From: an uncultured Acidobacteriota bacterium
Lineage (GTDB): Bacteria > Acidobacteriota > Vicinamibacteria > Vicinamibacterales > UBA2999
NCBI GenBank assembly: GCA_963802675.1
Contig: CAWDJL010000006.1
Location: 322,015 to 386,014, forward strand
DNA length: 64,000 bases
Reading direction: 5' to 3'
The notes under the pieces are model-generated. The model was not told where the DNA came from. It worked only from the letters and a program-made list of their open reading frames with translations, and did not search any database. This document shows, piece by piece, positions 2,991 through 63,960 of the stretch. Position 1 is the stretch's first letter; each line of letters opens with the position of its first letter. The translations under genes and the position numbers were made by a program.

Positions 2991-3007
2991 TCGAAGCCTT
3001 CCGCCTG

Positions 3008-3063
3008 AAGGCGGAAGCCACGAAGCTGAAGGCGGAAGCCACGAAGCTGAAGGCGGAAGCCAG
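3008..3063. repeat. 21-bp (3 x 7) tandem repeat GAAGGCGGAAGCCACGAAGCT, about 2.7 copies
   Basis: Two exact copies at 3008-3028 and 3029-3049, plus a partial third. It also forms the hairpin CTTCCGCC-TGAA-GGCGGAAG at 2998-3017. It lies between convergent genes. Confidence 0.9.
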
Positions 3064-3067
3064 ACGC

Positions 3068-3091
3068 GACGCCCGGCACTCGCCGGGCGTC
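3068..3091. terminator. perfect 10-bp GC hairpin between convergent genes (candidate bidirectional terminator, no U tract)
   Basis: GACGCCCGGC-ACTC-GCCGGGCGTC read directly. It sits between the stop at 2990 (+) and the stop at 3114 (-). Confidence 0.5.
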
Positions 3092-3113
3092 ACGCAACGG
3101 GCAACGGCAAACG

Positions 3114-4505
3114 CTATCGCTTCAACCGAACCCGCAGCCCGTGGGGATCGGGCTGCTGTGCGGGTTGCTGCATCGCGTTCGTCATCGGAATGATGGCTGC
3201 CAGCGTGCCGCTGCGGCCCCCGTGCGTCACCTCGATGATGCCGAGGCCGGGCGTGCTGCCAATCGCGTTGTGCGGATCGCCGCTGAGCGGCACCGGCCCA
3301 CGGAGCGCCACGAACAACCGGTCGCCGGACGGACTCGCGTCAACGAGATCGGGCGCCGCATTGTCGGTCAGCGGACCGTTCAGCGCGATCGTGTTCACGC
3401 GGCGGCCGCTTGGAACGCGGAGGATCTCCGCCACGTCGCCGTGCCGATCCATGACCCACAGGTACCGGCCGCGACCCGTGGCCGCCAGCCCGTGCGAGTC
3501 GGCGGCACCGCTCTTCGAAAACAGGAGCGTCGGCGCGGGCTTGTTTGGCCGGCCACCGGTCACGTAACCCTTCAGCGGGAAGCGATAGACATCGAACCCG
3601 TACAGCGTGGCGTGGTGAGGATCGCTGGACGACACGTTCACCGGACTCCCGCCCGAGTTGATGTACATCTCCTTCCCGACCTGCACGCCGCCGCAGCCGT
3701 TGCCTTTGACAGTGGCCTTGTCGTACTCGCTGACAATCGCCATGGGCGTGGCCTTCGTGTCCACGACGAACAAGCCGCCGCCACGCAACGTCACGAATCC
3801 GTAGCGGCTGCTGTCATCGATGATCGGACAGAGCGGCCAGTTGATGGGACGCAGGTCGGGATGCTCGCAGGGCTGTCCGCTGGGCGTCGTACAGGTCGCC
3901 AGGTCGAGCGTGGCCGCGGCGTTGTGCGTGAACGTGTTGGTTCGGAAGTTCGTGTCGATACGTTCCAGGCGCTTGCCGTTCTGGTTCGCAACCAGTATGA
4001 ACGACCCGTCCGGCGCCGGATAGGCAGCGTGCGCCTGACGTGTCTTGGTGCTGTCGCTGACCGTCGTTTCGAAGCTGTTCAACGGCGTGCGTGACTCCGC
4101 GTCGAAGATCACAACGTGTCCGCTCGCCACGAACGACACGATGGCATGCGTGTGCTCGGTGTTGAAGAGCACCATGTGCGGCCGTACCGGATTGCGGCCC
4201 GTCGCAGCCCGGCACACGTCGGCGGTGTTCGCGCCCAGGTCCACGCGCTGGATTGGCGTCGCGGCCCATGCGAAAGGCCCCGCGAGATCGGCGCCATCGA
4301 AGATCAGGATCTGGCCACCGAAGCCCGGCCGCGTGTCGGACTGATCGGCGATCCACACTTCGAAACTGTTCGAATGAAGATCGTGACCCGCGAGCGCCTG
4401 TGTCACGGCCGCGAAAGGCCGTCCGCTCTCCGATGCGGCGGAGAGGAGCACGGCAACGATGACCATCCCCAAGGTGCCGTGTGCAAAGGCGAAACGCGTT
4501 CTCAA
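3114..4505 (-). CDS. secreted beta-propeller-like protein (YncE/lactonase-like), function unknown
   Basis: 463-aa ORF with an N-terminal hydrophobic signal (GTLGMVIVAVLLSAASESG) and repeated strand-rich segments. TTG start overlaps the upstream stop (TTGA). Confidence 0.65.
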   Translation of the reverse strand: MRTRFAFAHGTLGMVIVAVLLSAASESGRPFAAVTQALAGHDLHSNSFEVWIADQSDTRPGFGGQILIFDGADLAGPFAWAATPIQRVDLGANTADVCRAATGRNPVRPHMVLFNTEHTHAIVSFVASGHVVIFDAESRTPLNSFETTVSDSTKTRQAHAAYPAPDGSFILVANQNGKRLERIDTNFRTNTFTHNAAATLDLATCTTPSGQPCEHPDLRPINWPLCPIIDDSSRYGFVTLRGGGLFVVDTKATPMAIVSEYDKATVKGNGCGGVQVGKEMYINSGGSPVNVSSSDPHHATLYGFDVYRFPLKGYVTGGRPNKPAPTLLFSKSGAADSHGLAATGRGRYLWVMDRHGDVAEILRVPSGRRVNTIALNGPLTDNAAPDLVDASPSGDRLFVALRGPVPLSGDPHNAIGSTPGLGIIEVTHGGRSGTLAAIIPMTNAMQQPAQQPDPHGLRVRLKR

Positions 4506-5170
4506 GGGCGGCCTCCTTCGATGCCGCCGGTGTTGGACGTCGCAGGGGCGGGAACGTAGCGCAGATAGGGCCTGGGGGCGCGCCAGCCTCTCGGATAGCG
4601 TTGGCGTGCGATCTCATCCGAGACCGCGGGGACGATGATCACGTCCTCGCCCTGCCGCCAGTTCACGGGAGTGGCCACCTGGTGCCGGGCCGTGAGCTGC
4701 AGCGAGTCGATGACGCGGAGCACCTCGTCGAAGCTGCGTCCGGTACTCGCAGGGTAGGTGATGGTGAGCTTGATGCGCTTGTCGGGTCCGATCACGAACA
4801 CCGATCGGACGGTCGCGGTGTCGCCGGCCTGCGGATCGAGCATGCCGTACTGCATTGCCACCTTCCGGTCGTGGTCCGCAATCATGGGAAAGTTGGGTGC
4901 GGTGCCCGTCACCGCCTGGATGTCTTTCGACCACTCGCGGTGCGCATCCAGGCCATCCACGCTGAGACCCATGAGGCGCACGCCGCGACGGTCGAACTCG
5001 GGCTTCAGCTGCGCCAGAATGCCCAGCTCCGTCGTGCACACCGGCGTGAAGTCTTTCGGGTGAGAGAAGAGCACTCCCCACGAGTCGCCGAGCCACGTGT
5101 GAAAGTCGATGTTGCCATCTGTGGTCTCTGCGGTGAACGTTGGGGCCACATCGCCCAGCTTCAGGGACAT
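4502..5170 (-). CDS. 1-Cys peroxiredoxin (Prx6-type)
   Basis: MSLKLGDVAPTFTAETTDGNIDFHTWLGDSWGVLFSHPKDFTPVCTTELG carries the canonical PVCTTE peroxidatic-Cys motif. Confidence 0.95.
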   Translation of the reverse strand: MSLKLGDVAPTFTAETTDGNIDFHTWLGDSWGVLFSHPKDFTPVCTTELGILAQLKPEFDRRGVRLMGLSVDGLDAHREWSKDIQAVTGTAPNFPMIADHDRKVAMQYGMLDPQAGDTATVRSVFVIGPDKRIKLTITYPASTGRSFDEVLRVIDSLQLTARHQVATPVNWRQGEDVIIVPAVSDEIARQRYPRGWRAPRPYLRYVPAPATSNTGGIEGGRP

Positions 5171-5260
5171 GACACACTCGTTTCGGCACGCTACTTGTCC
5201 GCGGTATGCGGAAGGACGCGTGCTCCTATTCCCTTAGGCAGAACTGGTGGATGGATTAGC

Positions 5261-7936
<2,676 letters not shown>

Positions 7937-7956
<20 letters not shown>

Positions 7957-12317: not shown

Positions 12318-12321
12318 CTGC

Positions 12322-12434
12322 GTTTACAGGGCCGGTCCCCCGGACTGTTCCAATTCCAGTTTCTGCCACTCTCGGGCGAGATTTTGAAAAAAAGGGGCCT
12401 GTCCCCTTTTATGCAGAGTGACAGTCCTTGTCAC
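12322..12434. repeat. REP-family copies (variant GTTTACAGGGCCGGTCCCC plus a full unit with an 8-bp-stem hairpin)
   Basis: The full unit at 12387-12434 is AAAAGGGG-CCTGT-CCCCTTTT ATGCA GA GTGACA-GTCCT-TGTCAC. The same unit occurs at 20158-20205, 26858-26899 and 27655-27692. Confidence 0.85.
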
Positions 12435-12788
12435 AGCGTCGGACGGAACCTGATTTCGAGGCCATCGAGTACCTGAGGGCCGGTAGGGTGGGTGAATAAA
12501 GACCTAGTGGTGTGACGCCGCGGACTCGGTCCTGACGGCGAGGACAGTTCTGTAATCACGTGGAACTGGCTCAGCCATCAGCACGGGCACGGCTGCGACG
12601 GCTCCGCAGCCAAACGTTTGTCACACCATCGGTGTACGGTGACCGGATTCGCGTGCACGTCGCACCGCCCCGTGGCAGACTAACAGGTCCCACCCACGGC
12701 AGCAGGCACTCGGCGGGTGACCCTTGATCATGGTCATCTGCGCGCCGTGAGTGCGACTCGCACACCGCTTTTTGTCAGGAGGGTTTCG

Positions 12789-20106: not shown

Positions 20107-20205
20107 CGTCGTTACAGGGCCTGTCCCCGCGTGAGAGGGCCTGTCCTCGCTTTCGCTGGTGACAATTGTCGTCACTTGCATAAAAGGGGACAGGCCCCTT
20201 TTATG
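20107..20205. repeat. REP cluster: two forward cores (GGGCCTGTCCCC, GGGCCTGTCC) plus one full inverted unit
   Basis: The cores are at 20117-20128 and 20137-20146. The full unit at 20158-20205 is GGTGACAATTGTCGTCAC TTG CATAAAAGGGG-ACAGG-CCCCTTTTATG (11-bp perfect stem). Confidence 0.85.
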
Positions 20206-20223
20206 AAAAGGTCACGCGCGTTG

Positions 20224-21123: not shown

Positions 21124-21131
21124 CGCGGGAA

Positions 21132-21230
21132 GTTACAAGTTACAAGTTACAAGTTACAAGCTGCGGCGCCTGCTGGCGCCGCAGCTTAACTCCGCACTCA
21201 ACTTTGAACTTGTAACCTGTAACTTGTAAC
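21132..21230. repeat. composite hairpin: (GTTACAA)x4, central GC hairpin, (TTGTAAC)x3
   Basis: The left arm at 21132-21159 is four exact heptamers. The core at 21160-21185 is GCTGCGGCGCC-TGCT-GGCGCCGCAGC. The right arm at 21204-21230 (TTGAACTTGTAACCTGTAACTTGTAAC) is complementary to the left arm. Confidence 0.9.
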
Positions 21231-21263
21231 TAACGTGGACAGCGTTCTTGCCAGCTGCAGCCC

Positions 21264-22349: not shown

Positions 22350-22369
22350 GTGCCGAGCGGTGGCCACGT

Positions 22370-22444
22370 CAGTTTTTCAGTTGTCAATTGCCAGTTCAAA
22401 GAGCCGCGCACTGCTTTGAACTGGAAACTGGAAACTGACAACTG
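22370..22444. repeat. composite hairpin with CAGTTNN heptamer arms
   Basis: Left arm: CAGTTTT TCAGTTG TCAATTG CCAGTTC AAAG. Loop: AGCCGCGCACTG. Right arm: CTTTGAACTGGAAACTGGAAACTGACAACTG. It starts 20 nt after the stop at 22349. Confidence 0.85.
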
Positions 22445-22500
22445 ATGCCGTCTCTCACGGGGACCAGTCCTGTAGTTTGGGACAGCCTCGATTGCGGCGG

Positions 22501-23905: not shown

Positions 23906-26771
23906 CTAGCGCTGACCGGCGGTGGTTTCGCGCGACGGGACGCCGACGGGCGATGCCGTGCCGTAGTAGATCCCGTTGAACAACAACTTGAATGTCCCGT
24001 GCGGTTGCGAACGGAACGTAATCTCCGGACCGAAGAGGAAGACCTTGCCCTTTCCCAGTGCGGCCTCCGCTGCCGCGACGCCACCCTCGAGGTAGTGCTG
24101 GCCCCAGGCCCACCCGGAGCGCAATGGTGCCTTGCTGTCGAACCACGCGACCGGCCGCACGCCGCGGAGCGACGCGTCGGGCGCGAGGTGCAGCACCGGG
24201 CTGTTGTCGAACATCACATCCACTTGCTTTGGCATGCCAAACGCAACGGGGTTGGTGTTGTCCACTGCCACGCGCAGCAGCGATCCTGGAATGTAGAACT
24301 TGTCGTTCGGGAGCCGTCGTTCGGTGCCATCCGGTTGCGACTCGACGAGATGGTCGCCCACAGGCAGCCCCAAGTGATACCCCAGAACGGCCGACCCTCC
24401 GAACGCCACGATCGCTCCCCCGGCCTCCACGAACTGCTTGATCTGAGGGATCGTCTGCTTGACGGTGACGCGCCCTAGGTGGCTCTTATATTCGGCCGGA
24501 ATGTCCGTCGCAGTGGGTTGCCCGCCACCGAAGCCTCCACCTCCACCTCCACTGCCTCCGCCCTCACCCTCAGGAATTCCGCCGTCCGGGAAAAGCAGGA
24601 CGTCGTACTTCGCCTTCAGGTTGCCTGCATCGAGCGTCCCCGGGAACACGACCTCGAACGGGAACTCGAACTGCTCGAGCATGAAGCGAACCCATCCCGA
24701 GGGCATCGAGCCGCCGTACTGATCCCACAATCCGATCCTCACGGGGTTGAGTTTGTAGAGCGCGCCCGGCGGCTTTTGCGTCACGGCCGTGAACGTCAAG
24801 CCGAGATCGTTCGCGGCGGTCTTCAGCACCGCGAGGGTCGACGGCTTGGCGGCGATGTACATGACCCCGATGCCGTCCGTGCTTTGCCACGTCCGATCGC
24901 CGACGAAGAACACTTCTTCGTTGCGCCTTCAACAGACGGTTGACGGCGATGAACGCATCGTTCACGCCGTGGCTGACGACATACCCCGTCGCGTTGCCGA
25001 GCTTCGACGACGCGTCCGGGCGGGGGCTTGATGGGCTCGGGTCCGAGCTTGACGAGCGGGCCATCGACGTCTTCGAGGATCGCGATCGAACTGAACGCCC
25101 ATCTGATACGCGAGCGTCCAGCCGGCGCTGTCATACGGCGGAATCGGAGGACCGCCGGGGAATTGGAAATCGTTCGGATGATCCTGCGGCTCGAACATGT
25201 CGAGAACGTGCGGCCGGAACGCCTGCGCCATCTTCACGACATACGAACCGGCGGGGTATTGTTTCCCACCCGCGGTGAAGGGAGCGCTTGCGCGATGGAT
25301 CTGGATGCCGGTCTTGATCAGCGCATTCATGAATTTCGTTGCGGTCAGGAAGTCGGTCTGATCGGCAGGCAGGACATACGCGCGCGCATCACGCCACTCG
25401 GGCCGCTTCATGAGCTTGTCGTACTGATCCATCGGGACCGGGCGCTGGCCGCCGAAGCCGCCTCCGCCACCCGGTCCGGCCGCAGGCGTCGCCGGCTTGT
25501 TCCGCGCGATCTCGTCCTTCACCGCCTGGATGCGCTTCGGATACATCGTCCAGGTATCTTTCGATCCTTTCTCGATGGAGTCCTTGCCCATCTTGTAGAT
25601 GTTGTAGAGGAAGTGCTCCTTGTTGCGGGACGCCACGTCGAGGACCGCGCGGTTGGCGGTAATCGAATACTCGATCGACTGGCGGAAGTGCCACGTCTGC
25701 GGAGCGATCGGGAAGCGGCAGATCGGCGCTCATGATCTGTCGATCGGGCACGAATGCCACTTCGATCGGGGTGGGATTGCCGATGCTTTCGGTGAGTAGC
25801 CCAATCATGTTGTGGAAGTACACCGTCGTTCGTAGACCGCCGTTCCACCAGGTCGAATAGTTCGCGCCGCGCCTCATCGTGGCGCCGGGCTTGTTCTCGG
25901 CCACGAAGCGGTTGTGCATCGCCGAGCCGACGACGTCGAGGCCGGTGATGATGAGCGGGTGATAGACGTAGTTGGCCGGATCGCGGAAGGGAGGCGCGAA
26001 CAGAATCGTGCCGGTTGGTCCTGTCTGGTGGTGGTTGTACATGATCTGCGGGAACCACTCGTAGTACAGGATGCGATTCATGTTGGTCGACTCGGGCTGC
26101 GCCGACATGTAGAAGTCGCGGTTGTTGTCGTGCCCGACGTACTTCTGATAGAGGCGCGGGATGCCGCTGGTTGATCGCCGCTTGGGATCCTGATTGCGCA
26201 TGTACCAGTCGGAGACGAGCTCCATGCCGTCGGGATTCGCATGGACGGCCAGGACGATCACGTCTCGGAGGAACCTCATCGTCTCTTCGTCGGTGCGGCT
26301 GACGAGCTGATAGACCGTTTCCATCAACTGCTGCGCGCCGAGGACCTCGGTGGCGTGCAGGCCGCCGTCGATCCACACGACGGCCTTGCCGTCGCGAGCG
26401 AGCTGCCGTGCCTGTTCGTCGGTCAGGCCCTCGGCGAGCGCCAGCCGCTTGGCGATGTCCTTGTATTTCTGCAGGTTCTTGTGGTTCTCCGGCGCGGTGA
26501 TGATGGCCATCAGCTGATCGCGGCCCTCGGCGGTCTTGCCGATGCTCTGCAGGATCATGCGGTCGGAATCGGCGTCGAGCTTGCGGAAGAACTCGCCGAA
26601 CTTGGTGTAGTTCGGCAGGACGTAGTCGGCGCCGATCGGATGGCCGAAGAGCTGCTCCGGCGTGGTGACCTTGACCGCGGGTTGGGCGGTGGGGGTCGCG
26701 GACGCGAGGGAGAGCGTCAGCAGGAGAAAGAGGATCGCGGATGGACGGCGTCTGCGGTGCATACGGTGCAT
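23906..26771 (-). pseudogene. large secreted M14-family metallocarboxypeptidase-like protein, frame broken at four points
   Basis: Signal plus HATEVLG..HANPDG..GHDNNRDF (zinc site) run to ~25712. Next comes PIAPQTWHFRQSIEYS..NIYKMGKDSIEKG..AGWTLAYQMGVQFDR, then ILEDVDGPLVKLGPEPIKPPP, then PDASSKLGNATGYVVSHGVNDAFIAVNRLLKA, then NEEVFFVGDRTWQ..to 23906. The breaks are at ~25710-25712 (GGG), 25081-25084 (CGCG), 25018-25026 (G runs) and ~24923-24927. Confidence 0.85.
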
Positions 26772-26842
26772 GGCAAGTCCTTGGGCAATACCGTTGGGAA
26801 GGGACCACTGTATCGCGATTGGCGGGCGTGGGGTGTCGCCAA

Positions 26843-27692
26843 TTGTCAGTCGGGGTTAAGGGGCCTGTCCCCTTTTATGCATGAGACACTTCTTGTCAGT
26901 CGGTAGGCGGGAACCTTCAGACCAAACAGCGCCTTTTTCAATCGTCGTGGTGTTCAAGAATGCTGCTGTGCGGCGGAATCGCAGGGTCCTGATGCCAGGC
27001 CGTCCGCGCGGGCCGTCCCCGTACGTCGGGATTCCGAATGTGCCTGATCTCTGCGATCGGCTGCGCGGCGTTCACGACATCGGCCCAACAGTCCGGCAAC
27101 CAGTAGGGTAGCGGGTCCAGCAGTTGGTCGATGTCGATCGCCCGGAGCGTCAGGCTGCTCCATATCCAGTCTTCTGCCTTCTCGACCAACTGAGCGCGGA
27201 GCGGATTGGCCTCGATGTAGCGGAGCACCGCTAAAAAGTGTCGCGCGTCCGTAATCCCGTCGCTCCAGAATCGTCGTTGGAAGACGTGACCCTGGCCGGT
27301 CGTCTTGGTCATCGATCGAAAGTCGCAGGCATAGCAACCTTGAACCCAGTGCATGTACGCAGATAGTGCGCCGTCGCTCACGGGCGACAAGAGAGCGTGA
27401 AAGTGATTGGGCATGAGGCAGACACCATAGATGTTGATGTCAAAGCGTTGCTTCCCTCGCGCAAGTAGACCGAGAAACGCTTCATAATCAGCATCTTTTA
27501 AGAAGATGCGGCGACGGTCATTTCCACGATTCAAGACGTGGAACGACTCGCCAGCCGGCGCGAATCGGCGGTGTCGTGGTGACATCGGCTCCTCTGAACC
27601 CAGGAGCAGAGGCAAGGCCGATGCCGCGAGAGAGTCCTGTCTCATTTGTTCATCGACAGTTCTTGTCACTTGCATAAAAGGGGACAGGCCCC
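26843..27692 (-). mobile_element. REPtron: RAYT gene flanked by inverted REP units
   Basis: The REP unit at 26858-26899 (GGGGCCTGTCCCCTTTTATGCA..) and the REP unit at 27655-27692 (..TGCATAAAAGGGGACAGGCCCC) are in opposite orientation on either side of the transposase gene. An 11-bp direct repeat TTGTCAGTCGG occurs at 26843-26853 and 26893-26903. Confidence 0.8.
26938..27585 (-). CDS. REP-associated tyrosine transposase (RAYT, IS200/IS605 Y1 superfamily)
   Basis: ATG 27585 follows GAGGAG. FHVLNRGNDRRRIF..YGVCLMPNHFHALL (HuH)..VFQRRFWS..LRYIEANPLRAQLV..WIWSS. GC content is visibly lower than in neighbouring genes. Confidence 0.85.
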   Translation of the reverse strand: MSPRHRRFAPAGESFHVLNRGNDRRRIFLKDADYEAFLGLLARGKQRFDINIYGVCLMPNHFHALLSPVSDGALSAYMHWVQGCYACDFRSMTKTTGQGHVFQRRFWSDGITDARHFLAVLRYIEANPLRAQLVEKAEDWIWSSLTLRAIDIDQLLDPLPYWLPDCWADVVNAAQPIAEIRHIRNPDVRGRPARTAWHQDPAIPPHSSILEHHDD

Positions 27693-27696
27693 GAAC

Positions 27697-29653: not shown

Positions 29654-29731
29654 GGGGACAGGTTCCGTCATCGGGGGACAGGCCCTGTCATCGGGGGACA
29701 GACCCTGTCATCGGGGCCAGGCCCTGTTAAA
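29654..29731. repeat. tandem array (period 20, ~4 copies) of a REP-related palindromic unit GGGGACAGGCCCTGTCATCG
   Basis: Copies lie at 29654-29673, 29674-29693 and 29694-29713, with a degenerate copy at 29714-29731. Each contains GACAGG-C-CCTGTC. The array sits between convergent gene ends. Confidence 0.9.
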
Positions 29732-33958: not shown

Positions 33959-34125
33959 TCAGCGTAGCCTCGCAGCCGCACCTGTCGCATCCGCCTCCCA
34001 TCGAGAGCTATCCAGGCGAGCCCCCTCGCTGAGCTTGGCGACGTCGGGGGTCGGGTCTAGTCGGAAAGACGTCGCCACGCGGCGTCACTCGCCTAAAAAA
34101 TCGCTTGTCGCGTCGCCGCGACGTC

Positions 34126-36073: not shown

Positions 36074-36240
36074 GTCGTCCTCCGCGTCCGACGCTGTTAT
36101 TGCATTAGACGGACTCACTCGCCTCTTTTCACCTCGACCTTGGAAAACGCCCGGCGGTCTCGACTCCCGAGCTGGCCCGAACGGCCGAGCTGCCCGAAAC
36201 CGCTCGAGCTGTTCGATACTGATTGCGCGATATGGCCATG

Positions 36241-40445: not shown

Positions 40446-40473
40446 CAGTGACCAGTGATCAGTGGCCAGTGGC
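40446..40473. repeat. heptamer tandem block CAGTGAC CAGTGAT CAGTGGC CAGTGGC
   Basis: Read directly, 25 nt after the stop at 40421. The reverse complement of 44526-44553 matches it at 25 of 28 positions. Confidence 0.9.
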
Positions 40474-40521: not shown

Positions 40522-41220
40522 CTACAGCCCAAAGAAGACGAGCGGCAGCCACTGGTCGGCTTTGTCCAGGTGTGGTTTGACGAGTGCTCGATTCTTTTCG
40601 GGGACTTCGAGAGTCGGGACACGAGGCGCCTTGAAATCCTCGAGACCCGTGCCGTCGCGCACGGCGTCCTCCAGTTGTTTCAAGTCAATCTTCGACGTGA
40701 CCTCCATGCCGGCGGCCTGAAACACGCGATCGCGGACCCACGAGTACTCGGCCTGCGAGAATCCTTGCTTGTTGAGTGCGTCGACCTGGTAGCGTTTCGC
40801 CTGGACGAACAGGTTGCCGAGATCGCTGAGCGCACCAATCAAGTCGCCGATCGAAGGCTGCGCCGGACGGTCGCCAGTGCCTTTCAAGTGCTGGTACTTC
40901 GCTTCGATCTCGTCGAACCGCTGGCCAAGGGCCGCGCGAATACCATCTTGCACTTTGACAAACCGATCGACCTGCGCCTCGGTCAATTCGCCGCTTGCCG
41001 GAGCGGTATACGCTGATTTGTTCGTGACCTGCTCGTCAAGCTCCGTGATTTCCGCCATTCCCTCGAGGTAATTCTTGGCGTTCTGGAGCAGTGGACTGGC
41101 AGCGCGGTACAGGAAGTAGCCGCCAACCACGGCCACGATGACACCAAGGACAAGGACAACGAGGCAACCGGCGAGGAGCTTTTTCACTGCAGCGGGAGGG
41201 TACCACGGCCTACGGTCCAC
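40522..41220 (-). CDS. hypothetical membrane-anchored protein (start uncertain; GTG 41187 is an alternative)
   Basis: 232-aa ORF with the TM segment LLAGCLVVLVLGVIVAVVGGYFLY followed by a helical soluble part. Its first 11 codons lie inside the heptamer repeat. Confidence 0.55.
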   Translation of the reverse strand: MDRRPWYPPAAVKKLLAGCLVVLVLGVIVAVVGGYFLYRAASPLLQNAKNYLEGMAEITELDEQVTNKSAYTAPASGELTEAQVDRFVKVQDGIRAALGQRFDEIEAKYQHLKGTGDRPAQPSIGDLIGALSDLGNLFVQAKRYQVDALNKQGFSQAEYSWVRDRVFQAAGMEVTSKIDLKQLEDAVRDGTGLEDFKAPRVPTLEVPEKNRALVKPHLDKADQWLPLVFFGL

Positions 41221-41376
41221 GGCCTACGGTCCACGGTCCACGGTTCTCGATGGCAACTGAAAATGGAAAACGAAGCCACGAAGTCACGAAGTCACGAAGA
41301 AAACCTGCTTCGCTCCTTGGTGTCTTAGGGCCCTTCGTAGCAACCGTAGACCGTAGACCGTGCGACCGTGGACCGT
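41203..41376. repeat. nested composite hairpin: outer ACGGTCC-type heptamer arms, inner CACGAAG block
   Basis: The left arm at 41203-41244 is CCACGGC CTACGGT CCACGGC CTACGGT CCACGGT CCACGGT. The inner block at 41276-41299 is (YCACGAAG)x3, with partial CTTCG complements. The right arm at 41341-41376 (CAACCGTAGACCGTAGACCGTGCGACCGTGGACCGT) is complementary to the left arm. Confidence 0.9.
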
Positions 41377-41377
41377 T

Positions 41378-43108: not shown

Positions 43109-43135
43109 ACAGTCCGGGTCATGGCAACAACGGGA

Positions 43136-43275
43136 GCACGGAACCACGGAACCGTAGCCACGAAGGGCACGAAGGCACGAAGGTTATTTCGATTTTGTCT
43201 TCGTGGTTTTCGTGTTCTTCGTGGCTGCGTTCCTGACGCGTAGTCCCGTGCTTCTGTGCTTCTGCGCTTCTGCGC
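43136..43275. repeat. composite hairpin with CACGAAG(G) arms plus a (YGCTTCTG)x3 block
   Basis: Left arm 43136-43183: ..CCACGAAGGGCACGAAGGCACGAAGG. Loop: TTATTTCGATTTTGT. Right arm 43199-43233: CTTCGTGGTTTTCGTGTTCTTCGTGG... The octamer block is at 43249-43275. Confidence 0.9.
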
Positions 43276-44488
43276 CCAGCTTCTTTGGCAACGCTCGTAC
43301 CAGCTGATGTAAGAACAACCCCACATCCGTCACGATCCCGATCGTCTGCGTCGACCCGCGGTCTGACAACTTCGTGACGACCGCCGGGTTGATATCGACA
43401 CACACGACCTTCACCCACGACGGCAGCAGGTTGCCGACGCCTATGCTGTGGAGCATTGACGACAGCATGATGACCATCTCCACACCGGCGAGCGCATCCG
43501 CGTAAGCATCCTGCGCCGCGACGAGATCCATCATCGTTTCGGGCAGCGGACCGTCATCTCGGATCGACCCGGCGAGGAGGTAGCGAACGCCGTGCGTGTG
43601 ACACGCGTGCATGACCCCGGACGTCAGGACACCGGCCTCGACCGCCTTGGCAATGCCGCCGGCTCGCCTCACCGTATTGATCGCGCGCATGTGGTTGCGA
43701 TGGCCGTGCTCGACCGGATGGCCCGTGCTCAAATCGATTCCGAGCGACGTGCCCGACAACGCGAACTCGATGTCATGCACGGCGAGGGCGTTGCCCGACA
43801 GCAGGAGGTCGACATACCCGCGCCGGATCAGTTCGCAAAAGTAGTCTGCGCCGCCGGTATGAATCAGGACGGGACCGGCGACAAACGCAATCGGGCCGCC
43901 GTGCTCCCGCGTTTCGCGCATCAAAGCGGCCACGCGCGCCACCGCGGTCTCAACGCGGCGCTCCGACGACACTTCGTTGCTCATGAAGCCGAAGGTGGGC
44001 CGATCGCGCGACTGCACGTCGGGCATCACGCGCACACCATGCATGCCGCACACGACCTGTTCCCCCCTTCGCAGATCGCGAAGTTTGCGGCACGAGGCCC
44101 GGCCGTCAGCGACGACGATCGCAGCATCCATGCGTTGCTGCTCGACCGGCCCCCACTGCCCCGCCAGCCGAACCTCGGTCCGATGGTTGGTCGTCGAGTA
44201 GAAGTCCTCTGGCGCCGCACCCTCGATGTCCACCGCTCGGAGGACGGCGTCGGGCAGACTCCGCACATAGCACCCATAGGGCGATAGTTTCTCCAGCAGG
44301 TGGTCGAGGGACTCGCGGTTGTGGGCGCTGACCTTGATCGTCAGCCGGGAGGCGTCTTCGTTGGTGCGGCCAACGTCGAAGTGCTCAATCTCGTAGCTCG
44401 CGCCATGCTCGACGATGGTCGTCAGAATGGCTTGAAGGTCACCTGAGTCGATCAGGTGACCTCGAGCTTCGACCGTTTCAGCAGGCAT
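43184..44488 (-). CDS. LOR/SDH bifunctional-enzyme conserved-domain protein (TIGR00300-like; ornithine cyclodeaminase / arginine-dihydrolase-C-domain-like)
   Basis: Start is ATG 44488 (MPAETVEARGHLIDSGDLQAIL). GPVLIHTGGADYF..LLSGNALAVHDIE..HGHRNHMRAIN. The last ~30 codons (..AEAQKHRSTGLRVRNAATKNTKTTKTKSK) are read out of the repeat element. Confidence 0.75.
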   Translation of the reverse strand: MPAETVEARGHLIDSGDLQAILTTIVEHGASYEIEHFDVGRTNEDASRLTIKVSAHNRESLDHLLEKLSPYGCYVRSLPDAVLRAVDIEGAAPEDFYSTTNHRTEVRLAGQWGPVEQQRMDAAIVVADGRASCRKLRDLRRGEQVVCGMHGVRVMPDVQSRDRPTFGFMSNEVSSERRVETAVARVAALMRETREHGGPIAFVAGPVLIHTGGADYFCELIRRGYVDLLLSGNALAVHDIEFALSGTSLGIDLSTGHPVEHGHRNHMRAINTVRRAGGIAKAVEAGVLTSGVMHACHTHGVRYLLAGSIRDDGPLPETMMDLVAAQDAYADALAGVEMVIMLSSMLHSIGVGNLLPSWVKVVCVDINPAVVTKLSDRGSTQTIGIVTDVGLFLHQLVRALPKKLGAEAQKHRSTGLRVRNAATKNTKTTKTKSK

Positions 44489-44519
44489 CGCATCAGGGAG
44501 CGACCCGCCGTGTGCTTTG

Positions 44520-44556
44520 AACTGGCCCACTGGCCACCGACCACTGGTCACTGGGC
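44520..44556. repeat. heptamer tandem block AACTGGC CCACTGG CCACCGA CCACTGG TCACTGG
   Basis: Read directly between the htpX stop and the LOR/SDH start. It is the inverted partner of 40446-40473. Confidence 0.9.
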
Positions 44557-46863: not shown

Positions 46864-46912
46864 AGCCGGCCACCGGCCACCGGTCACCGGCAACTGGTCA
46901 CCGGCCACCGGC
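46864..46912. repeat. heptamer tandem block (CACCGGY)x7
   Basis: CAGCCGG CCACCGG CCACCGG TCACCGG CAACTGG TCACCGG CCACCGG C, starting 6 nt after the stop at 46858. Confidence 0.9.
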
Positions 46913-46944
46913 CAGAACGAACCGTCCAGCGTAATATCAGAATC

Positions 46945-48195: not shown

Positions 48196-48244
48196 GCGGG
48201 TGGGGCGAGTAGGTCGGGACCCCACCTGCCCTACCCGCCCGACC
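48193..48244. repeat. imperfect GC-rich inverted repeat with 7-nt phasing between convergent genes
   Basis: TAGGCGGGTGGGG CGAGTAGGTCGGGA CCCCACCTGCCCTA CCCGCCCGACC. TAGGCGGGTGGGG pairs with CCCCACCTGCCCTA with mismatches. Confidence 0.7.
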
Positions 48245-48251
48245 AGACCAA

Positions 48252-48695: not shown

Positions 48696-48860
48696 GAGTG
48701 GGCTTTGGGCAGCAACGGTCGAAGGGGCAAGAGACAGCCGTCGCGAGCGCGGCGACCAGCAGACGTTTCATAAGATGCTCCTTGAAGGGAAACTGATCCG
48801 ATACCTTACTTCGTTCGAGCACCGGAAAAGTATCACCGTCTCGCGCAGCCCTGGTGAGAC

Positions 48861-50530: not shown

Positions 50531-50622
50531 GAAGGCCGCTCCGCGAAGCGCCCTTCCGGCGAAGGCCGCTCGCCTTCCGCGAAGCGGCCGTGCGGCGAAG
50601 CTGGCCCTTCCGCGAAGCGGCC
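50531..50622. repeat. GC-rich spacer with a 17-bp perfect direct repeat CCTTCCGCGAAGCGGCC and degenerate copies
   Basis: Exact copies lie at 50573-50589 and 50606-50622, the latter touching the desaturase stop. Related GAAGGCCGCT occurs at 50531-50540 and 50561-50570. Confidence 0.85.
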
Positions 50623-51530: not shown

Positions 51531-51629
51531 GTCGCCTGCAACGGTAACAGGTCGGCCCGCGACGCTCTGTAATACTTCTGTCAGCGACTGGAAGTGCGCA
51601 TACTGTCAGCAGTTGGCGCGTGCACGGCT

Positions 51630-51650
51630 GCGCGCCGCTGCGCGGCGCGC
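51630..51650 (-). terminator. perfect 9-bp GC hairpin immediately 3' of the VWA operon (no U tract)
   Basis: GCGCGCCGC-TGC-GCGGCGCGC at 51630-51650, 2 nt beyond the stop at 51652-51654. Confidence 0.4.
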
Positions 51651-51651
51651 A

Positions 51652-54494: not shown

Positions 54495-54503
54495 GACGAG
54501 GCT

Positions 54504-58193: not shown

Positions 58194-58232
58194 CGCGGAC
58201 AGCCTACCCCAGGGCTGCTGTGTACAGTTCTG

Positions 58233-59894: not shown

Positions 59895-59920
59895 TTTCCT
59901 GATCTTCGTGTTCCTCTGGT

Positions 59921-61324: not shown

Positions 61325-61399
61325 GGCGGGATGGTAGCAGAAGCAGGTGCCTGGGTTCGCACCTGTCGCACCCGTCGGGCGCCGCCGTTATGATGTGCC

Positions 61400-62548: not shown

Positions 62549-62565
62549 GACTGCTCACGCAGCAG

Positions 62566-62760
62566 TAGGACTCGCCCCTTTGGCGCTCGTAGGGCTCGGC
62601 GGCTTCGCCGCCTCGTGCGGGCCGCGGCCGTTCGGCCGCGGCTTTCGATTGCGTCGACGGTACTTCCCAGCGCGGGCCGCACGGCCCGCGCCCCCCCGAG
62701 GCGCGCAGCGCCGAGTCCGACGAGCGCCGAAGGCGCGAGTCTCACGAGCGAAGCGAGTCC
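62566..62760. repeat. ~195-bp imperfect long palindrome with two perfect internal 10-bp hairpins between convergent genes
   Basis: Outer pairs: GGACTCGC (62568-62575) with GCGAGTCC (62753-62760), and GGCGCTCGT (62582-62590) with ACGAGCGCC (62720-62728). Inner hairpins: GCCGCGGCCG-TT-CGGCCGCGGC (62621-62642) and GCGCGGGCCG-CA-CGGCCCGCGC (62670-62691). Confidence 0.85.
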
Positions 62761-62763
62761 TTC

Positions 62764-63729
62764 TTAGAACCAGTTGGCCTTCCTGAATCTATAGATCAAA
62801 TACAAATCCGCCAGCACCATCGACCCCAGCGCGAGCGGGTAGCCCCACGGCATGCGCAGCTCGGGCATATGGTCGAAGTTCATTCCGTAGATTCCAGCGA
62901 TCAACGTCGGCACGGCGATGAGCGACGCGTATGCCGCCAGTCGCTTGACAACCTCGTTCTCCTGCAACGTGATCAGCGACAAGTTGACCGACATCGCTGT
63001 TGACACCATGTCGCGAAGGTTCTCGATCGACTGCTGCAGCCTCGCCAGATGGTCATGAACATCGCGGAAATAGTCCTGCAAGTTGAAGCACGTCGGCGGC
63101 ACACGACCACCATGTAGCTTGCCCGTCACCTCGAGCAGCGGGACGCTGGCGTGCTCGAGGGTCATCACTTTCCGCTTGAGTCCGTACAAGGCCTCGACGT
63201 TTGCTCGGGTGGTCTGGCCGGCAAAGATGCGCTCTTCGACTTGTTCGATTTCTTCGGTGAGCGCGTCGAGCACGGGAAAGTAACGATCGACGACCGCGTC
63301 CATGAGGGCATACAGAACATAGGCAGGCCCGTGCTTCAGCAGCTCAGGCTCCTCCTCGCAGCGACGACGCACGTCGACAAAGCCGCGTTCGACACCGCGA
63401 CGGGTGGTAATCACGTAGTTTCGACCCACAAAGACCGAAACCTCGCCGGTCCTGAGGTCATCATCTGCCGCCTCGACGGGGTGCATCACCACGAAGAGCG
63501 ACTGCGCGTACTCCTCGATCTTCGGTCGCTGATGGCCGTGCTGCGCGTCTTCGACCGCCAACTCGTGAAGGGTGAACTCCAGTTGCAGCGCCTCGAATTC
63601 GGCCGTCTCTGGATCTTTCAGGGCCACCCAGACAAAACACCCAGGTCGACTCGTGTACGAACGAATCTCGCTGACTTGGATGTCAGCCAGCTTCTGACCG
63701 TCCTGGTAGGCGACGCAATTGACAAGCAT
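62764..63729 (-). CDS. corA: CorA magnesium/cobalt transporter
   Basis: 321-aa ORF with the GMN motif in GIYGMNFDHMPEL and two C-terminal TM helices. Confidence 0.95.
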   Translation of the reverse strand: MLVNCVAYQDGQKLADIQVSEIRSYTSRPGCFVWVALKDPETAEFEALQLEFTLHELAVEDAQHGHQRPKIEEYAQSLFVVMHPVEAADDDLRTGEVSVFVGRNYVITTRRGVERGFVDVRRRCEEEPELLKHGPAYVLYALMDAVVDRYFPVLDALTEEIEQVEERIFAGQTTRANVEALYGLKRKVMTLEHASVPLLEVTGKLHGGRVPPTCFNLQDYFRDVHDHLARLQQSIENLRDMVSTAMSVNLSLITLQENEVVKRLAAYASLIAVPTLIAGIYGMNFDHMPELRMPWGYPLALGSMVLADLYLIYRFRKANWF

Positions 63730-63750
63730 GCAGAGAGTCGCTTCGCTCCT

Positions 63751-63778
63751 CGGTTGCCGGTTGCAACTGGCAACTATC
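63751..63778. repeat. heptamer tandem block CGGTTGC CGGTTGC AACTGGC AACTATC
   Basis: Read directly, 22 nt upstream of the corA start (minus strand). Confidence 0.85.
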
Positions 63779-63923
63779 CTACGCGGTCTCGATTAGTTTC
63801 GAAGGGCGTCGGACGGCGTGAGCCTCAAGGCGCGGCGGGCGGGGACCCAGGTTGCGACCAGGCCAGCGGCAAGCCTGACGGCACCAATGACCGGCAGCTC
63901 CAGCGGGCCACTGTCGATCACGG

Positions 63924-63960
63924 ACCACCGGATCACTGACCACCGACCACCGACCACAGA
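63924..63960. repeat. heptamer tandem block ACCACCG GATCACT GACCACC GACCACC GACCACA
   Basis: Read directly. It abuts a minus-strand stop (CTA at 63961-63963) of a gene that continues off the window. Confidence 0.85.

Follow-up and report, generated by a model that had tools for sequence, protein, structure and literature searches.

Heptamer repeat blocks at gene ends in Vicinamibacterales, probable slippage products of a kind known from Xanthomonas and Nostoc

Repeat blocks in the 64-kb window

The window, meaning the whole 64,000-nucleotide stretch analyzed here, comes from the MAG of an uncultured soil Acidobacteriota bacterium of the Vicinamibacterales; its gene map combines Pfam with the genes called on a contig 98-99% identical to it. 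TRF identified 9 arrays of period 7 and 5 of period 8 with 2.8 or more copies, against chance means of 0.5 and 0.6 in 30 dinucleotide shuffles of the window; at a TRF score of at least 38, the counts were 10 and 0.07. The blocks are therefore real and above chance. All ten listed in a sequence-only reading of this DNA were recovered in place or within a few bases, and the same architecture recurs with different words, as that reading had noticed. The features are as follows, none assigned to a strand.

3005..3063: 21-mer of three heptamers (GAAGGCG GAAGCCA CGAAGCT), 2.8 copies (TRF score 116, 100% matches), beginning 15 nt past the stop at 2990 in convergent spacer 2991-3113, with GC hairpins on both sides (GCCTTCCGCC/GGCGGAAGGC-type at the 5' edge; GACGCCCGGC..GCCGGGCGTC at ~3068-3091)
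21130..21160: left arm (AAGTTAC) x4.4 of the DinB block (TRF, sequence), which lies in the tandem spacer 3' of a DinB-family gene (stop at 21264)
21159..21186: central GC hairpin AGCTGCGGCGCC-TGCT-GGCGCCGCAGCT of the DinB block, inside the heptamer arms (sequence; loop fold z -3.9)
21207..21231: right arm (AACTTGT) x3.6, inverted copy of the left arm, stopping 33 nt from the DinB stop (TRF, partner search, fold)
22370..22444: hairpin block (CAGTTNN)n-GTTCAAAG..CTTTGAAC-(NNAACTG)n (TRF, sequence; z -2.9, -3.3), of one word family with the DinB block, in convergent spacer 22350-22500 between globin (22349) and histidine-kinase (22501) stops
40446..40473: direct array (CAGTGRY) x4 without inverted partner (TRF), in a convergent spacer 25 nt past the peptidase S9 stop (40421)
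41203..41244: (CCACGGY CTACGGT) x3, left-hand outer arm of the nested hairpin (41203-41376) occupying the whole tandem spacer 41188-41377 (TRF; spacer fold)
41262..41341: CACGAAG-type octamers (ACGAAGYC x3.8) that have partial CTTCG partners and make up a hairpin inside the outer arms, within the 133 bp of 41216-41348 that the 98% identical strain lacks (TRF; strain comparison)
41343..41376: (ACCGTRG) x4.7, right-hand outer arm, its end 2 nt away from the DUF4097 stop (41378) (TRF, partner search, fold)
43126..43183: arrays (CACGGAAC) x2-3 and (CACGAAGG) x3 (TRF, sequence, fold), occupying the 75-nt spacer from an ArgZ-like stop (43184-43186) to a rhodanese start (43108)
43197..43275: complementary arm (NCTTCGTG) x3 and array (GCTTCTGY) x3 (TRF, sequence, fold)
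44515..44556: degenerate direct heptamers CCACTGG / CCACCGA, the weakest block, visible in sequence and under the TRF threshold, 10 nt from the peptidase M48 stop (44566)
46864..46914: direct array (CACCGGY) x7 (TRF score 70), in a tandem spacer 6 nt past the ATP-grasp stop (46858)
63751..63778: small 5'-proximal GTTGCCR / YGGCAAC block (sequence), 22 nt upstream of the CorA start (63729)
63915..63961: CGACCAC-type units x6.6, all direct (TRF; gene calls), abutting the upstream gene's stop where a 3' FtsX gene fragment joins

Eight blocks lie 0-33 nt from a stop codon (3005, 21130-21231, 22370, 40446, 41203-41376, 44520, 46864, and 63915) and the block at 43126-43275 straddles one; the sequence-only reading, which placed almost every block near a stop, thus holds for nine of the ten (within ~33 nt or overlapping) but not for 63751-63778, which adjoins a start codon. 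Its statement that blocks fill most 3' spacers was too strong: of the window's convergent and tandem spacers with a length of 30 nt or more, 29 in all, 9 hold a period-7/8 block and three more hold other repeats, as against 1 of 9 divergent spacers with a block, and high block density is restricted to 40-47 kb. Part of the block it had read as a spacer element at 43136-43275, namely 43197-43275, falls inside a called ORF (43184-44488). Because this arm and array lie within the 3' end of the ArgZ-like ORF, the stop codon would sit in the hairpin loop. Most homologues of this 434-aa ORF match residues 1-400 only, and among related loci its length at that end ranges from 398 to 422 codons, stop included.

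Pairing and folding of the arms

Inverted arms are present in four window blocks (21130-21231, 22370-22444, 41203-41376, and 43126-43224), and spacer 2991-3113 folds through its flanking GC hairpins (z -4.2 on both strands). These five have z-scores from -2.9 to -8.3, with significant hairpins in only 4-5 window blocks: the DinB block folds at -69.7 kcal/mol (z -7.4 in the sense orientation, -8.3 for the other fold), spacer 41188-41377 at -98.3 kcal/mol (z -8.1), and the 43126..43183 block with z -5.0 (sense) and -7.1; for 43109-43250 the antisense is more stable than the sense (-70.8 vs -58.8 kcal/mol). Long hairpins built from period-7 and period-8 arms are accordingly found at several gene ends, but the single-arm arrays behave like shuffles: direct-only arrays at 40446, 44520, 46864, and 63915 gave z from +0.6 to -1.25 (+0.6 and 0 at 40446, -0.1 at 44515..44556, -1.25 at 46864). 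Arms enclose a central GC hairpin in the DinB block alone, and the sequence-only reading that inverted arms often surround a GC hairpin was thus too strong as well.

Across related loci, 68 of 199 arrays (34%) show an inverted counterpart no more than 200 nt away, compared with 7 of 199 in a reversed-sequence control, and the search yielded 27 pairs; direct-only arrays make up the other two thirds or so. Several pairs contain GC hairpins, some with T-rich tails (L043, L053, L054, and window 21159-21186). Most paired blocks lie between co-directional genes and end ~5-30 nt ahead of the next start codon. Folding energies of the pairs showed no bias toward the mRNA sense (13 vs 8, p = 0.9).

Distribution and turnover

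The comparison set comprised 84 fetched loci and the window (~1.56 Mb, of which ~1 Mb is Vicinamibacterales-like). Period 7 is the commonest, with 162 arrays as opposed to 61-69 for periods 6, 8, and 9. Per kb, and subject to crude gene calling on the related loci, coding DNA holds 0.053 arrays, convergent spacers 2.47, tandem spacers 1.93, and divergent spacers 0.72, so the proposed enrichment after stops is found in ~1 Mb: array density in spacers is ~40 times that in genes, and in 3' spacers ~3 times that in divergent ones. Single arrays in tandem spacers lie nearer the stop in 33 cases and nearer the start in 17 (p = 0.03; median distance 10.5 nt and 35 nt, respectively). Arrays thus build up with a bias just past stop codons, presumably because expansion there spares promoters, ribosome-binding sites, and reading frames. 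Numerous independent MAGs and metagenome contigs carry them, so they are not assembly artefacts; in ~0.5 Mb of Bryobacterales and Terriglobia loci there are almost none.

Certain words (CACGAAG, AGGGATC, AAGGCAC, AGCCCCC, AGTTNNN) are common to unlinked loci and different genomes, which bears out the recurrence reported at distant loci and the view that local slippage alone is insufficient. Such sharing would also suit sites for an oligomeric protein reading a core every 7 nt in RNA or single-stranded DNA, or arrays phasing a DNA-binding protein (3 x 7 = 21 bp, two helical turns). HutP reads UAG triplets 4 nt apart, and TRAP-like rings read repeated triplets. Conserved cores with variable positions (CAC+NNNN, AGTT+NNN), the 21-mer superperiod at 3005-3063, and CTTCGTG-type words, which many genomes have ~15-30 nt ahead of the rhodanese start, point the same way. 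We nevertheless regard protein sites as very unlikely: cores vary within the genome (CAC.., AGTT.., GAAG.., GTTACAA) and widely between genomes, so a single protein could not read all of them; periods 8 and 9 both occur at one orthologous site; strand preference is not significant (C-rich in the sense strand 31 vs 19, p = 0.07); and no candidate protein was found.

Ten structural differences of 5 nt or more separate the window from the 98-99% identical contig, and six of them are within blocks, which constitute 1.6% of the 43.8 kb aligned; the six are indels of -7, +8, +7, and +11 nt, the loss of 133 bp from within a palindrome, and one remodelled block. Copy number differs between strains: the relative is one unit shorter at 40446..40473, has one extra CACGGAAC unit at 43126..43183 and one extra unit at 46864..46914, and carries 8.6 copies compared with 6.6 at 63915..63961. 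The CorA 5' block takes three forms in near-identical strains, direct x4.7 (L003), direct plus inverted (window), and palindromic (L004). Compared with the window, L005 has a longer left arm 41203..41244, L006 a drifted one, and L001 a collapsed one; the 44515..44556 block is shorter in L005 and absent in L006-L009; spacer 22350-22500 is minimal and blockless in L165-L170, with only a short inverted repeat in L171. A homologous DinB-block allele, with the central hairpin 21159..21186 conserved, is present in JGI contigs L165 and L166, and the allele of 99%-identical strain L002 is remodelled.

Non-autonomous mobile elements of MITE, REP, or BIME type, entering gene-end hairpins with a transposase encoded elsewhere and the heptamer arms as terminal inverted repeats, could account for words recurring at unlinked loci and across genomes. 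They could also account for the module (AGTTNNN)n-AGTTCAAAG..CTTTGAAC-(NNNAACT)n common to two blocks 1.2 kb apart, for the two-layered build of 41203-41376 and 43126-43250 (outer CACGG, inner CACGAAG words), for nested in-hairpin differences (41216-41348, and the CorA 3' spacer relative to L004), and for one site where the block centre differs wholly between strains with 99% identical flanks. We consider this unlikely. Differences are mostly one-unit indels; the 133 bp at 41216-41348, without counterpart in the 98% identical strain, were deleted there rather than inserted in the window, as outgroups L005 and L006 indicate; the one polymorphic site inspected has no target-site duplication; and orthologous spacers show gradual word drift, not presence or absence, with element sequence and length not conserved and words varying by locus and genome. 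Gene calls for 19.8-64 kb, and Pfam on the main ORFs of 1-20 kb, revealed no transposase close to the blocks, a result with little bearing on any trans-acting factor.

Blocks persist from 98% to about 70% flank identity, and orthologous spacers keep hairpins while the words on both arms change. In the ArgZ-rhodanese spacer the words are CACGAAG/CTTCGTG in the window and L014, CACGGAA/TTCCGTG in L007, CACGGAG/CTCCGTG in L027, CACAGAG/CTCTGTG in L009, and AAGAATC/TTCTTGT in L012, and five of seven tested spacers fold with z from -3.7 to -8.4; 3' of the ATP-grasp gene, orthologues carry other words in L006, L007, and L009 and a related one in L005.

If the arrays were neutral debris, slippage products surviving past stops where selection is weakest, with inverted pairs as by-products of palindrome-prone replication, the fast turnover between strains, the unstructured two thirds, and the missing sense-strand folding bias would all be expected. 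In many relatives the ArgZ-like and rhodanese genes overlap or lie 1-9 nt apart, so the block is dispensable at that junction, and the Xanthomonas heptamer repeats are likewise without a found function (PMC4692102). We consider this improbable, because complementary arms were kept through at least five word types at one orthologous spacer and because drift alone is unlikely to preserve blocks over such divergence. Biased arm-to-arm conversion could mimic this retention. In the one pair inspected by eye for it (L051, 13495-13716), variant units are not mirrored between arms, so arm-to-arm copying would be infrequent. Long perfect palindromes are normally unstable, and their abundance here suggests constant regeneration or selection.

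Origin, possible role, and known heptamer repeats

We think it fairly probable that the blocks are Vicinamibacterales-specific simple sequence repeat arrays, born by slippage, and candidate 3' stem-loops when paired. The units are mostly heptanucleotides, some arrays having octa- or nonanucleotide units. Replication slippage as the origin is well supported: whole units are gained and lost, direct arrays become inverted, and long palindromes collapse, and the orthologous spacers indicate that blocks stay long at a given site while words drift. Slippage with a lineage-preferred step of 7-8 nt would add and remove units, GC hairpins resembling terminators at the ends of genes being the likely seeds, and the inverted arm would be created, and kept complementary, by intrastrand template switching at quasi-palindromes. 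The recurrence of identical words at unlinked loci is not explained by slippage, and the unmirrored variant units of the L051 pair speak against frequent copying from arm to arm.

In two-arm blocks, the transcript or single-stranded DNA may fold into a stem of ~25-90 bp, often around a GC hairpin. Such a stem-loop, lacking a U-tract, might work at 3' ends or between cistrons, either making RNA polymerase pause or terminate or keeping 3' exonucleases out. This RNA role is the weakest step of the scheme. Canonical U-tract terminators are not above chance in 40 kb, which leaves room for a U-tract-less terminator as a candidate only. Paired blocks ~5-30 nt before the next start, if they terminated efficiently, would leave no room for a promoter, which argues against termination. 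Stopping at a central terminator-like hairpin would leave the 3' arm untranscribed, a further point against it. The hairpin-free majority counts against a stem-loop role in general, and the lack of strand bias against one in RNA. As for the direct-only arrays, they probably precede paired blocks, derive from them by decay, or are carried along neutrally.

Among long SSRs, heptanucleotides are described as the most frequent class in many bacteria (Mrazek 2007, per PMC4679880). The sequence-only reading took the blocks for a distinct, undescribed class, which they are not: the same syndrome was reported for GGGAATC repeats in GC-rich Xanthomonas and GGGGAYT repeats in Nostoc (Rehm et al. 2015, PMC4692102). 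Those arrays are 89-93% intergenic, lie a mean of 28 nt from the upstream ORF with some overlapping the stop codon, form an inverted pair at about 70 of about 185 repeat sites, and keep their positions between species while lengths and sequences vary (PMC4692102). The Vicinamibacterales blocks are alike in being intergenic, near stops, partly in inverted pairs, and variable, and this match identifies them as a known kind of element, the heptameric intergenic repeats of Xanthomonas and Nostoc, here carried by Vicinamibacterales.

Heptamer arrays in the window and their place among the genes

Tandem Repeats Finder (TRF), with arrays of at least 2.8 copies counted, returned period-7/8 arrays in the window (GC ~64%) at about nine of the ten places where the sequence-only reading had listed repeat blocks, and the remaining ones are visible in the sequence. 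A block here is the array or arrays of one spacer, and a word is its repeat unit. The blocks at 44520-44556 and 63751-63778 were seen by eye and lie under the TRF threshold.

Period-7/8 arrays called by TRF in the window
3005-3063: 2.8 copies of a 21-mer that comprises three heptamers, 100% matches
21130-21160 and 21207-21231: two arrays (DinB block)
22419-22437: one array
40446-40471: one array
41203-41244, 41270-41299 and 41343-41376: three arrays
43126-43153, 43159-43183, 43197-43224 and 43250-43275: four arrays (ArgZ-rhodanese junction)
46866-46914: one array
63915-63961: one array

Nine period-7 and five period-8 arrays were counted in the window, compared with means of 0.5 and 0.6, respectively, in 30 dinucleotide-preserving shuffles. 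At a TRF score of at least 38, the counts were 10 in the window and 0.07 in the shuffles, which places the blocks well past chance.

Gene positions were taken for 19.8-64 kb from the gene calls and Pfam assignments of a 916-kb ENA metagenome contig (ERZ25039555 contig_968, 98-99% identical), recovered by exact-protein look-ups, and for 1-20 kb from ORFs, a codon-position GC3 profile and Pfam. On this map, the proposal that blocks begin near stop codons held for nine of the ten, which lie 0-33 nt from a stop or straddle one; it failed for 63751-63778, the sole start-proximal block, 22 nt upstream of the CorA start. The block at 43126-43275 carries the stop codon of the ArgZ-like gene (43184-43186) in its loop, with one arm within the ORF. 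The further proposal that such repeats fill most 3' spacers was too generous, real as the blocks are: of the convergent and tandem spacers of at least 30 nt in the window, 9/29 hold a period-7/8 block and 3/29 more carry repeats of other types.

Other repeats in 3' spacers of the window
29654-29727: 20-mer GGGGACAGGCCCTGTCATCG, 3.8 copies
50540-50622: mini-hairpins
48196-48251: degenerate inverted repeat

Among the divergent spacers, one of nine contains a repeat, of period 8/18, at 36166-36211; for this contrast between 3' and 5' spacers the window by itself is too small for significance. The repeat (CCGAGCTG..CCCGAAACCG) lies between a STAS gene and a peptidase gene. No other pure 5' spacer of the window holds a tandem repeat, and L005 has this one too (L numbers denote related loci or contigs from other genomes). 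The single-arm arrays of the window all read CAC.. or CAG.. on the + strand, a possible hint of replication-strand bias.

Several other elements occur in the window. A dispersed element unrelated to the heptamers occurs in three copies of ~45 nt, ..GACARTTSTYGTCACTTGCATAAAAGGGGACAGGCCCC(TTTTAT) (12395-12445, 20120-20223, 27650-27696, 29654-29727); its core, GGGGACAGGCCC, also forms the 20-mer array (x3.8) at 29654-29727 and a doublet at ~20120-20155. The element carries runs of A and T and resembles a REP-like or bidirectional terminator-like module. The mini-hairpin array at 50540-50622 (CCGCGAAGCGG-type, period 16/36) occupies a tandem spacer past the stop of a fatty-acid desaturase gene, and the orthologous spacer holds a (GCAGGTR)n inverted-arm block in L009 and CGAAGGN repeats in L007. 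In the convergent spacer past CorA (62549-62763), a ~150-nt cluster of GC-rich hairpins (for example GCGGGCCGTGCGGCCCGC and GCCGCGGCCGAACGGCCGCGGC) sits within a simple hairpin, GACTCGC..GCGAGTC, which is all that L004 has at the same site.

Inverted arms and turnover of words across the lineage

With the ArgZ-like protein (43184-44488) as query, GTDB species genomes gave 80 loci, the closest from Acidobacteriota/Vicinamibacterales MAGs (72-92% protein identity) and the others from Bryobacterales and Terriglobia (55-60%). When TRF was run on these loci together with the window (1.56 Mb, at least 2.8 copies), period 7 was the commonest, with 162 arrays vs 61, 64 and 69 for periods 6, 8 and 9. 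Arrays cluster in the Vicinamibacterales-like loci, and ~0.5 Mb of Bryobacterales/Terriglobia loci is almost without them. Genes of the related loci were called with a simple codon-usage caller trained on the window, a crude instrument for which stops are more reliable than starts.

Period-7/8 array density, Vicinamibacterales-like sequence (~990 kb)
Convergent spacers: 2.47 per kb
Tandem spacers: 1.93 per kb
Divergent spacers: 0.72 per kb
Coding sequence: 0.053 per kb

The enrichment in 3' spacers, on which the sequence-only reading had staked its claim, is thus present (2.47 and 1.93 vs 0.72 and 0.053 per kb). Single arrays in tandem spacers lie nearer the stop in 33 cases and nearer the start in 17 (p = 0.03), at median distances of 10.5 nt and 35 nt, respectively. 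Metagenome contigs carrying distant rhodanese homologues, whose matches of at most 68% identity were used solely as evidence that related environmental contigs commonly carry period-7/8 arrays, contained 21 period-7 and 16 period-8 arrays vs 5 of period 6, inverted pairs included. An assembly artefact was excluded, since blocks or their alleles are found in independent assemblies (ERZ25039555 contig_968; JGI contigs L004 and L165-L167; GTDB MAGs L005-L009). The repeat observation is real and lineage-wide; its density had been overstated.

A strong inverted match within 200 nt was found for 68/199 merged period-7/8 arrays (34%) vs 7/199 in a reversed-sequence control. The 27 inverted pairs comprise 21 in tandem spacers, four in convergent spacers, one in a divergent spacer and one at a contig edge; typically they start a few nt past a stop codon and finish 5-30 nt ahead of the next start. 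Examples are L051 13495-13716 (~15 units of AGGGATC, 28 nt, then ~12 inverted units), L009 3995-4170 ((GCAGGTR) x12, then the inverted arm) and L040 3434-3542. Pairs with long centres often contain a GC-rich hairpin, which in L043, L053 and L054 has a T-rich tail like that of an intrinsic terminator; the window hairpin at 21159-21186 belongs to this type. Folding was assessed as the minimum free energy (MFE) of a region vs shuffles, expressed as a z-score, on sense and antisense strands.

Folding of window regions (MFE in kcal/mol)
21124-21263: MFE -69.7; z -7.4 sense, -8.3 antisense
41188-41377: MFE -98.3; z -8.1
43109-43250: MFE -58.8 sense, -70.8 antisense; z -5.0 sense, -7.1 antisense
22351-22500: MFE -59.3 (+ strand), -57.6 (- strand); z -2.9 and -3.3
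2991-3113: MFE -60.1 (+ strand), -64.1 (- strand); z ~-4.2, chiefly from flanking GC hairpins

For the direct-only arrays (40446, 44520, 46864 and 63915), z was +0.6 to -1.25, no fold beyond that of shuffles. The notion that period-7 arms build long hairpins is therefore limited to the four to five blocks of ten with significant z.

In five relatives, at flank identities of 95% to ~70%, the orthologous spacers still hold blocks, but with drifted words; in spacers S2, S4, S7 and S11, position is kept while length and sequence vary. The ArgZ-rhodanese junction illustrates this, with periods of 7, 8 or 9 among genomes.

Arms at the ArgZ-rhodanese junction (left / right)
Window and L014: CACGAAG(G) / CTTCGTG; z -4.8 in the window, -8.1 in L014
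L007: CACGGAA / TTCCGTG; z -7.3
L027: CACGGAG / CTCCGTG; z -8.4
L009: CACAGAG / CTCTGTG; z -1.5, decayed
L012: AAGAATC / TTCTTGT; z -3.7
L005: words CACGAAG / CTTCGTG, hairpin decayed; z +0.5

In many further relatives the two genes overlap here or stand 1-9 nt apart, so the block is dispensable at this junction. The ArgZ-like ORF (43184-44488) is 434 aa long in the window, of which most homologues match the first 400 residues only; its last ~30 codons consist of CTTCGTG and GCTTCTGY repeats (43187-43275), and its length among relatives ranges over 398-422 codons, stop codon counted. From the repeat-coded end and the varying length it follows that the block has lengthened the reading frame. 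Two tandem spacers, 48772-48860 and 51531-51651, are free of repeats and keep their sequence in relatives from 98% to ~75% identity, including a conserved stretch upstream of the desaturase gene (for example CTCTGTAATACTTCTGTCAGCG); they are probably promoter or operator regions.

Consensus units are highly diverse across genomes, with no single word or motif, so that one conserved word behind the arrays was rejected and the process is tied to period, not to a sequence family. A role of the blocks as binding arrays is a less probable reading than the stem-loop role discussed below. Among 7-mers, those with the strongest enrichment in spacers over coding DNA are for the most part promoter-like words that contain a stop; TAGAATA, AGAATAG and ATTCTAG occur in 13-31 spacers and up to 25 genomes (spacers of L005-L056, L063 and the window), and GTTACAA and CGTTACA are also enriched (19 spacers each), GTTACAA being in addition the word of the 21130 block. 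These five words may be parts of the lineage's promoter boxes. Array words do recur at unlinked loci, as had been noted from the window: AGGGATC arrays were found in L017, L038, L047 and L051, AAGGCAC and AAAAGGC arrays in five genomes, AGCCCCC arrays in L043 and L053, and CACGAAG in this genome at 3005, 41270 and 43159 and past the window end in L003. Recurrence of this kind, within and between genomes, goes beyond what local slippage alone would produce, as the sequence-only reading had concluded.

Strain-level change, proposed function and origin

Alignment of the window with contig_968 over 43.8 kb revealed 10 structural differences of at least 5 nt, six of them in blocks, which make up 1.6% of the sequence.

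Structural differences in blocks, window vs contig_968
40460: -7 (CAGTGGC)
43137: +8 (CACGGAAC)
46899: +7 (CACCGAC)
63944: +11
41216-41348: inner 133 bp between the arms lost in the relative
21128-21245: block remodelled

Copy number thus differs between strains by one-unit indels, and such unit-size changes are consistent with polymerase slippage as their source. At 41203-41376, the outgroups L005 and L006 keep the inner CACGAAG part, which identifies the short form in the relative as a palindrome collapse. At the DinB 3' end, the window allele is common to the more distant JGI contigs L165 and L166; that of the relative has homologous (AGTTNNN)n and (NNNAACT)n arms around another centre and resembles the window block at 22370-22444, with the same inner arms AGTTCAAAG..CTTTGAAC. 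The CorA 5' block (63751-63778) takes three forms among three near-identical strains, namely direct x4.7 in L003, two direct and two inverted units in the window, and the palindrome GTTGCCGGCAAC in L004, so conversion of direct to inverted units is quick. These strain comparisons give direct support to slippage, arm inversion and palindrome collapse as the origin.

Other differences lie outside the blocks. A GTGCCG-rich 42-bp repeat (x2.4) at 39112-39211, coding and close to the end of a Tricorn_N-like gene (38370-39318), is of unequal length in the window and the 98% identical contig. A 41-bp segment at 33974-34014, upstream of an FAD-binding/Fe-S oxidase gene and outside any heptamer block, is missing in the relative strain; bounded by short direct repeats (CCTCGC), it fits a slippage deletion. 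Dozens of 1-bp indels inside genes separate the window from contig_968 across 19.8-64 kb, and a 607-aa gene on the relative (23906-25733; region 23906-26906) is fragmented in the window's ORF list, which together suggest homopolymer-type errors in one long-read assembly. At 63779-63914 lies the 3' end of an FtsX-family gene, of which the last ~130 nt remain in the window vs a 151-aa ORF at L004 353-808. The 63915 array sits exactly at the junction of this fragment with an unrelated upstream gene and so marks a rearrangement breakpoint.

Rfam 15 yielded no match at gathering score in the whole window, and no tRNA genes were found there, so a known RNA family or tRNA-derived element was rejected. 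Scans with terminator-like and sigma-70-like consensus sequences stayed at chance level in 40 kb, with none in 3' spacers; canonical terminators or sigma-70 promoters at blocks were accordingly rejected, and canonical U-tract terminators look scarce. No window block precedes a T run, although stems are present. Among the 21 tandem-spacer pairs, the sense strand was the stabler in 13 and the antisense in 8 (Wilcoxon p = 0.9), so that folding energy showed no asymmetry of the kind looked for as a sign of RNA-level selection. A Rho-utilisation-like C-rich bias of single arrays was rejected (C-rich sense strand in 31 vs 19, p = 0.07, not significant), as was a G-quadruplex reading, window words having no G runs, though some relatives' words have them. 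These outcomes are as DNA-level symmetry would give and point neither for nor against an RNA role.

In the reading that we favour, arrays would be seeded at terminator hairpins, and the blocks would serve as 3' or intercistronic stem-loops. A mobile-element origin is less probable than this: recurrent words stand at unlinked loci, but no transposase was found among the genes called in 19.8-64 kb or when the main ORFs of 1-20 kb were scanned with Pfam, no target-site duplication is visible at the one polymorphic site inspected (21128-21245), and the 133-bp difference at 41216-41348 is, judged by outgroups, a deletion. Of this genome, ~74 kb was covered by the analysis. A neutral origin, in which slippage products would simply persist past stop codons under weak selection, is also rated below the stem-loop reading; the same spacers keep hairpins as words change on both arms, making them good material for weighing structural selection against biased repeat mutation. 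We consider it quite improbable that a dedicated lineage-encoded activity, not generic slippage, writes and disperses the arrays, whether a templated repeat-adding enzyme or a recombinase/transposase targeting terminator hairpins. If true, it would explain the same words at many unlinked 3' spacers, the word differences between genomes, the nesting of blocks within hairpin loops and the joint word change on both arms, and would trace the Xanthomonas, Nostoc and Vicinamibacterales repeats to a single mechanism not yet discovered.

Should the stem-loops end or stabilise transcripts, they would form a major 3' signal class in a phylum in which canonical terminators are seemingly scarce. Vicinamibacterales are abundant soil bacteria, and the comparative series extends from 98% to ~70% identity. 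The blocks are the main source of structural differences between close strains, can lengthen or overlap reading frames, and coincide with at least one rearrangement junction, all of which is relevant to MAG assembly, gene calling and strain typing in soil metagenomes.

Comparison with known repeat systems

REP/BIME elements of enterobacteria and pseudomonads are conserved imperfect palindromes of ~20-40 nt in hundreds of copies, associated with a RAYT transposase; they lie at 3' ends and within operons, cluster and nest, and can stabilise upstream mRNA. The blocks resemble them in being palindromic and in occurring at gene 3' ends and between operon genes, and differ in having no conserved unit, internally periodic arms and words that change from locus to locus. 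Long-stem intrinsic terminators without a U tract have been reported for Actinobacteria (PMC13613805). Like intrinsic terminators, the blocks form stable stem-loops shortly past stops, and some contain a GC-rich hairpin with a T-rich tail; unlike them, window blocks have no U tract and far longer stems, and many end 5-30 nt before the next start.

Among heptamers, the cyanobacterial STRR words are reportedly CCCCAGT, TTGGTCA and CAACAGT, said to have been described by Mazel and co-workers in 1990. They too are tandem heptanucleotides in non-coding DNA, and several window words share their CAGT/ACTG core; however, they belong to heterocystous cyanobacteria, another phylum, and the window has no array of any of the three. 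ACTGGGG, which is CCCCAGT read on the opposite strand, is arrayed only in the relative L053. The TAACTGA repeats of marine Beggiatoaceae, cyanobacteria and Bacteroidetes (MacGregor 2015, PMC4679880) use one fixed word, in 169 direct sets and one inverted, a few nt upstream of starts (PMC4679880). They share with the window arrays an intergenic position, a patchy phylogeny and, with the CAGTTNN family, a similar AACTG core; the allele of the relative L002 contains GGTAACTGAG. They differ in that the words here vary, one-third of arrays are inverted and arrays lie preferentially near stops.

According to the summaries in PMC4679880 and PMC4692102, Mrazek et al. 2007 ranked heptanucleotides first in frequency among the long SSRs of prokaryotes (LSSRs, 5-11 nt) and proposed slippage; dominance of period 7 and a patchy distribution, with arrays in Vicinamibacterales and almost none in Bryobacterales, are features in common. 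In the literature searched, no description of such repeats in Vicinamibacteria was found.

The closest counterparts are the heptamers GGGAATC of Xanthomonas campestris and X. axonopodis and GGGGAYT of Nostoc PCC 7120 (Rehm et al. 2015, PMC4692102). The two Xanthomonas genomes contain 186 and 183 arrays of 2-26 units, 89-93% of them intergenic, at a mean of 28 nt from the upstream and 160 nt from the downstream ORF, with some overlapping a stop codon; 16% lie between convergent and 7-8% between divergent genes, and among ~185 repeat sites there are 70-75 cases of two closely spaced, oppositely oriented arrays (PMC4692102). Of the sites, 83% are common to both species; they show "extensive length and sequence variation" and keep their single or paired type, and for the Xanthomonas/Nostoc repeats both strands are transcribed and no function was found (PMC4692102).

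Our arrays agree with these point by point: they are longer and commoner than chance (9 vs 0.5 in shuffles), tandem heptamers of 2 to >20 units in both cases, ~90% intergenic and rarer between divergent genes, and tens of nt from the upstream stop or overlapping it. About one-third form close inverted pairs able to give stem-loops or cruciforms, position and single or paired type are mostly kept between species while length and sequence vary, and there is no strand preference relative to transcription. They differ in using periods 8 and 9 alongside 7, in blocks that may nest or enclose a terminator-like GC hairpin, and in the compensatory word series at orthologous spacers. Xanthomonas has one G-rich, G-quadruplex-capable word per genome, whereas the window has at least six word families, none G-rich (CACGAAG; CAGTGRY/CACCGRY; CACGGWC; CAGTTNN; GTTACAA; GAAGGCG); some of its relatives do have G-rich words, GGGATCA and GGGGCTA. 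Window words lack G3 runs; the G-rich word is a feature of the Xanthomonas case and not of heptanucleotide LSSRs generally. The sequence-only reading had proposed a distinct, new repeat class; with the same syndrome already described by Rehm et al. 2015 (PMC4692102), the window repeats are instead of the known heptameric-SSR kind, now in Acidobacteriota.
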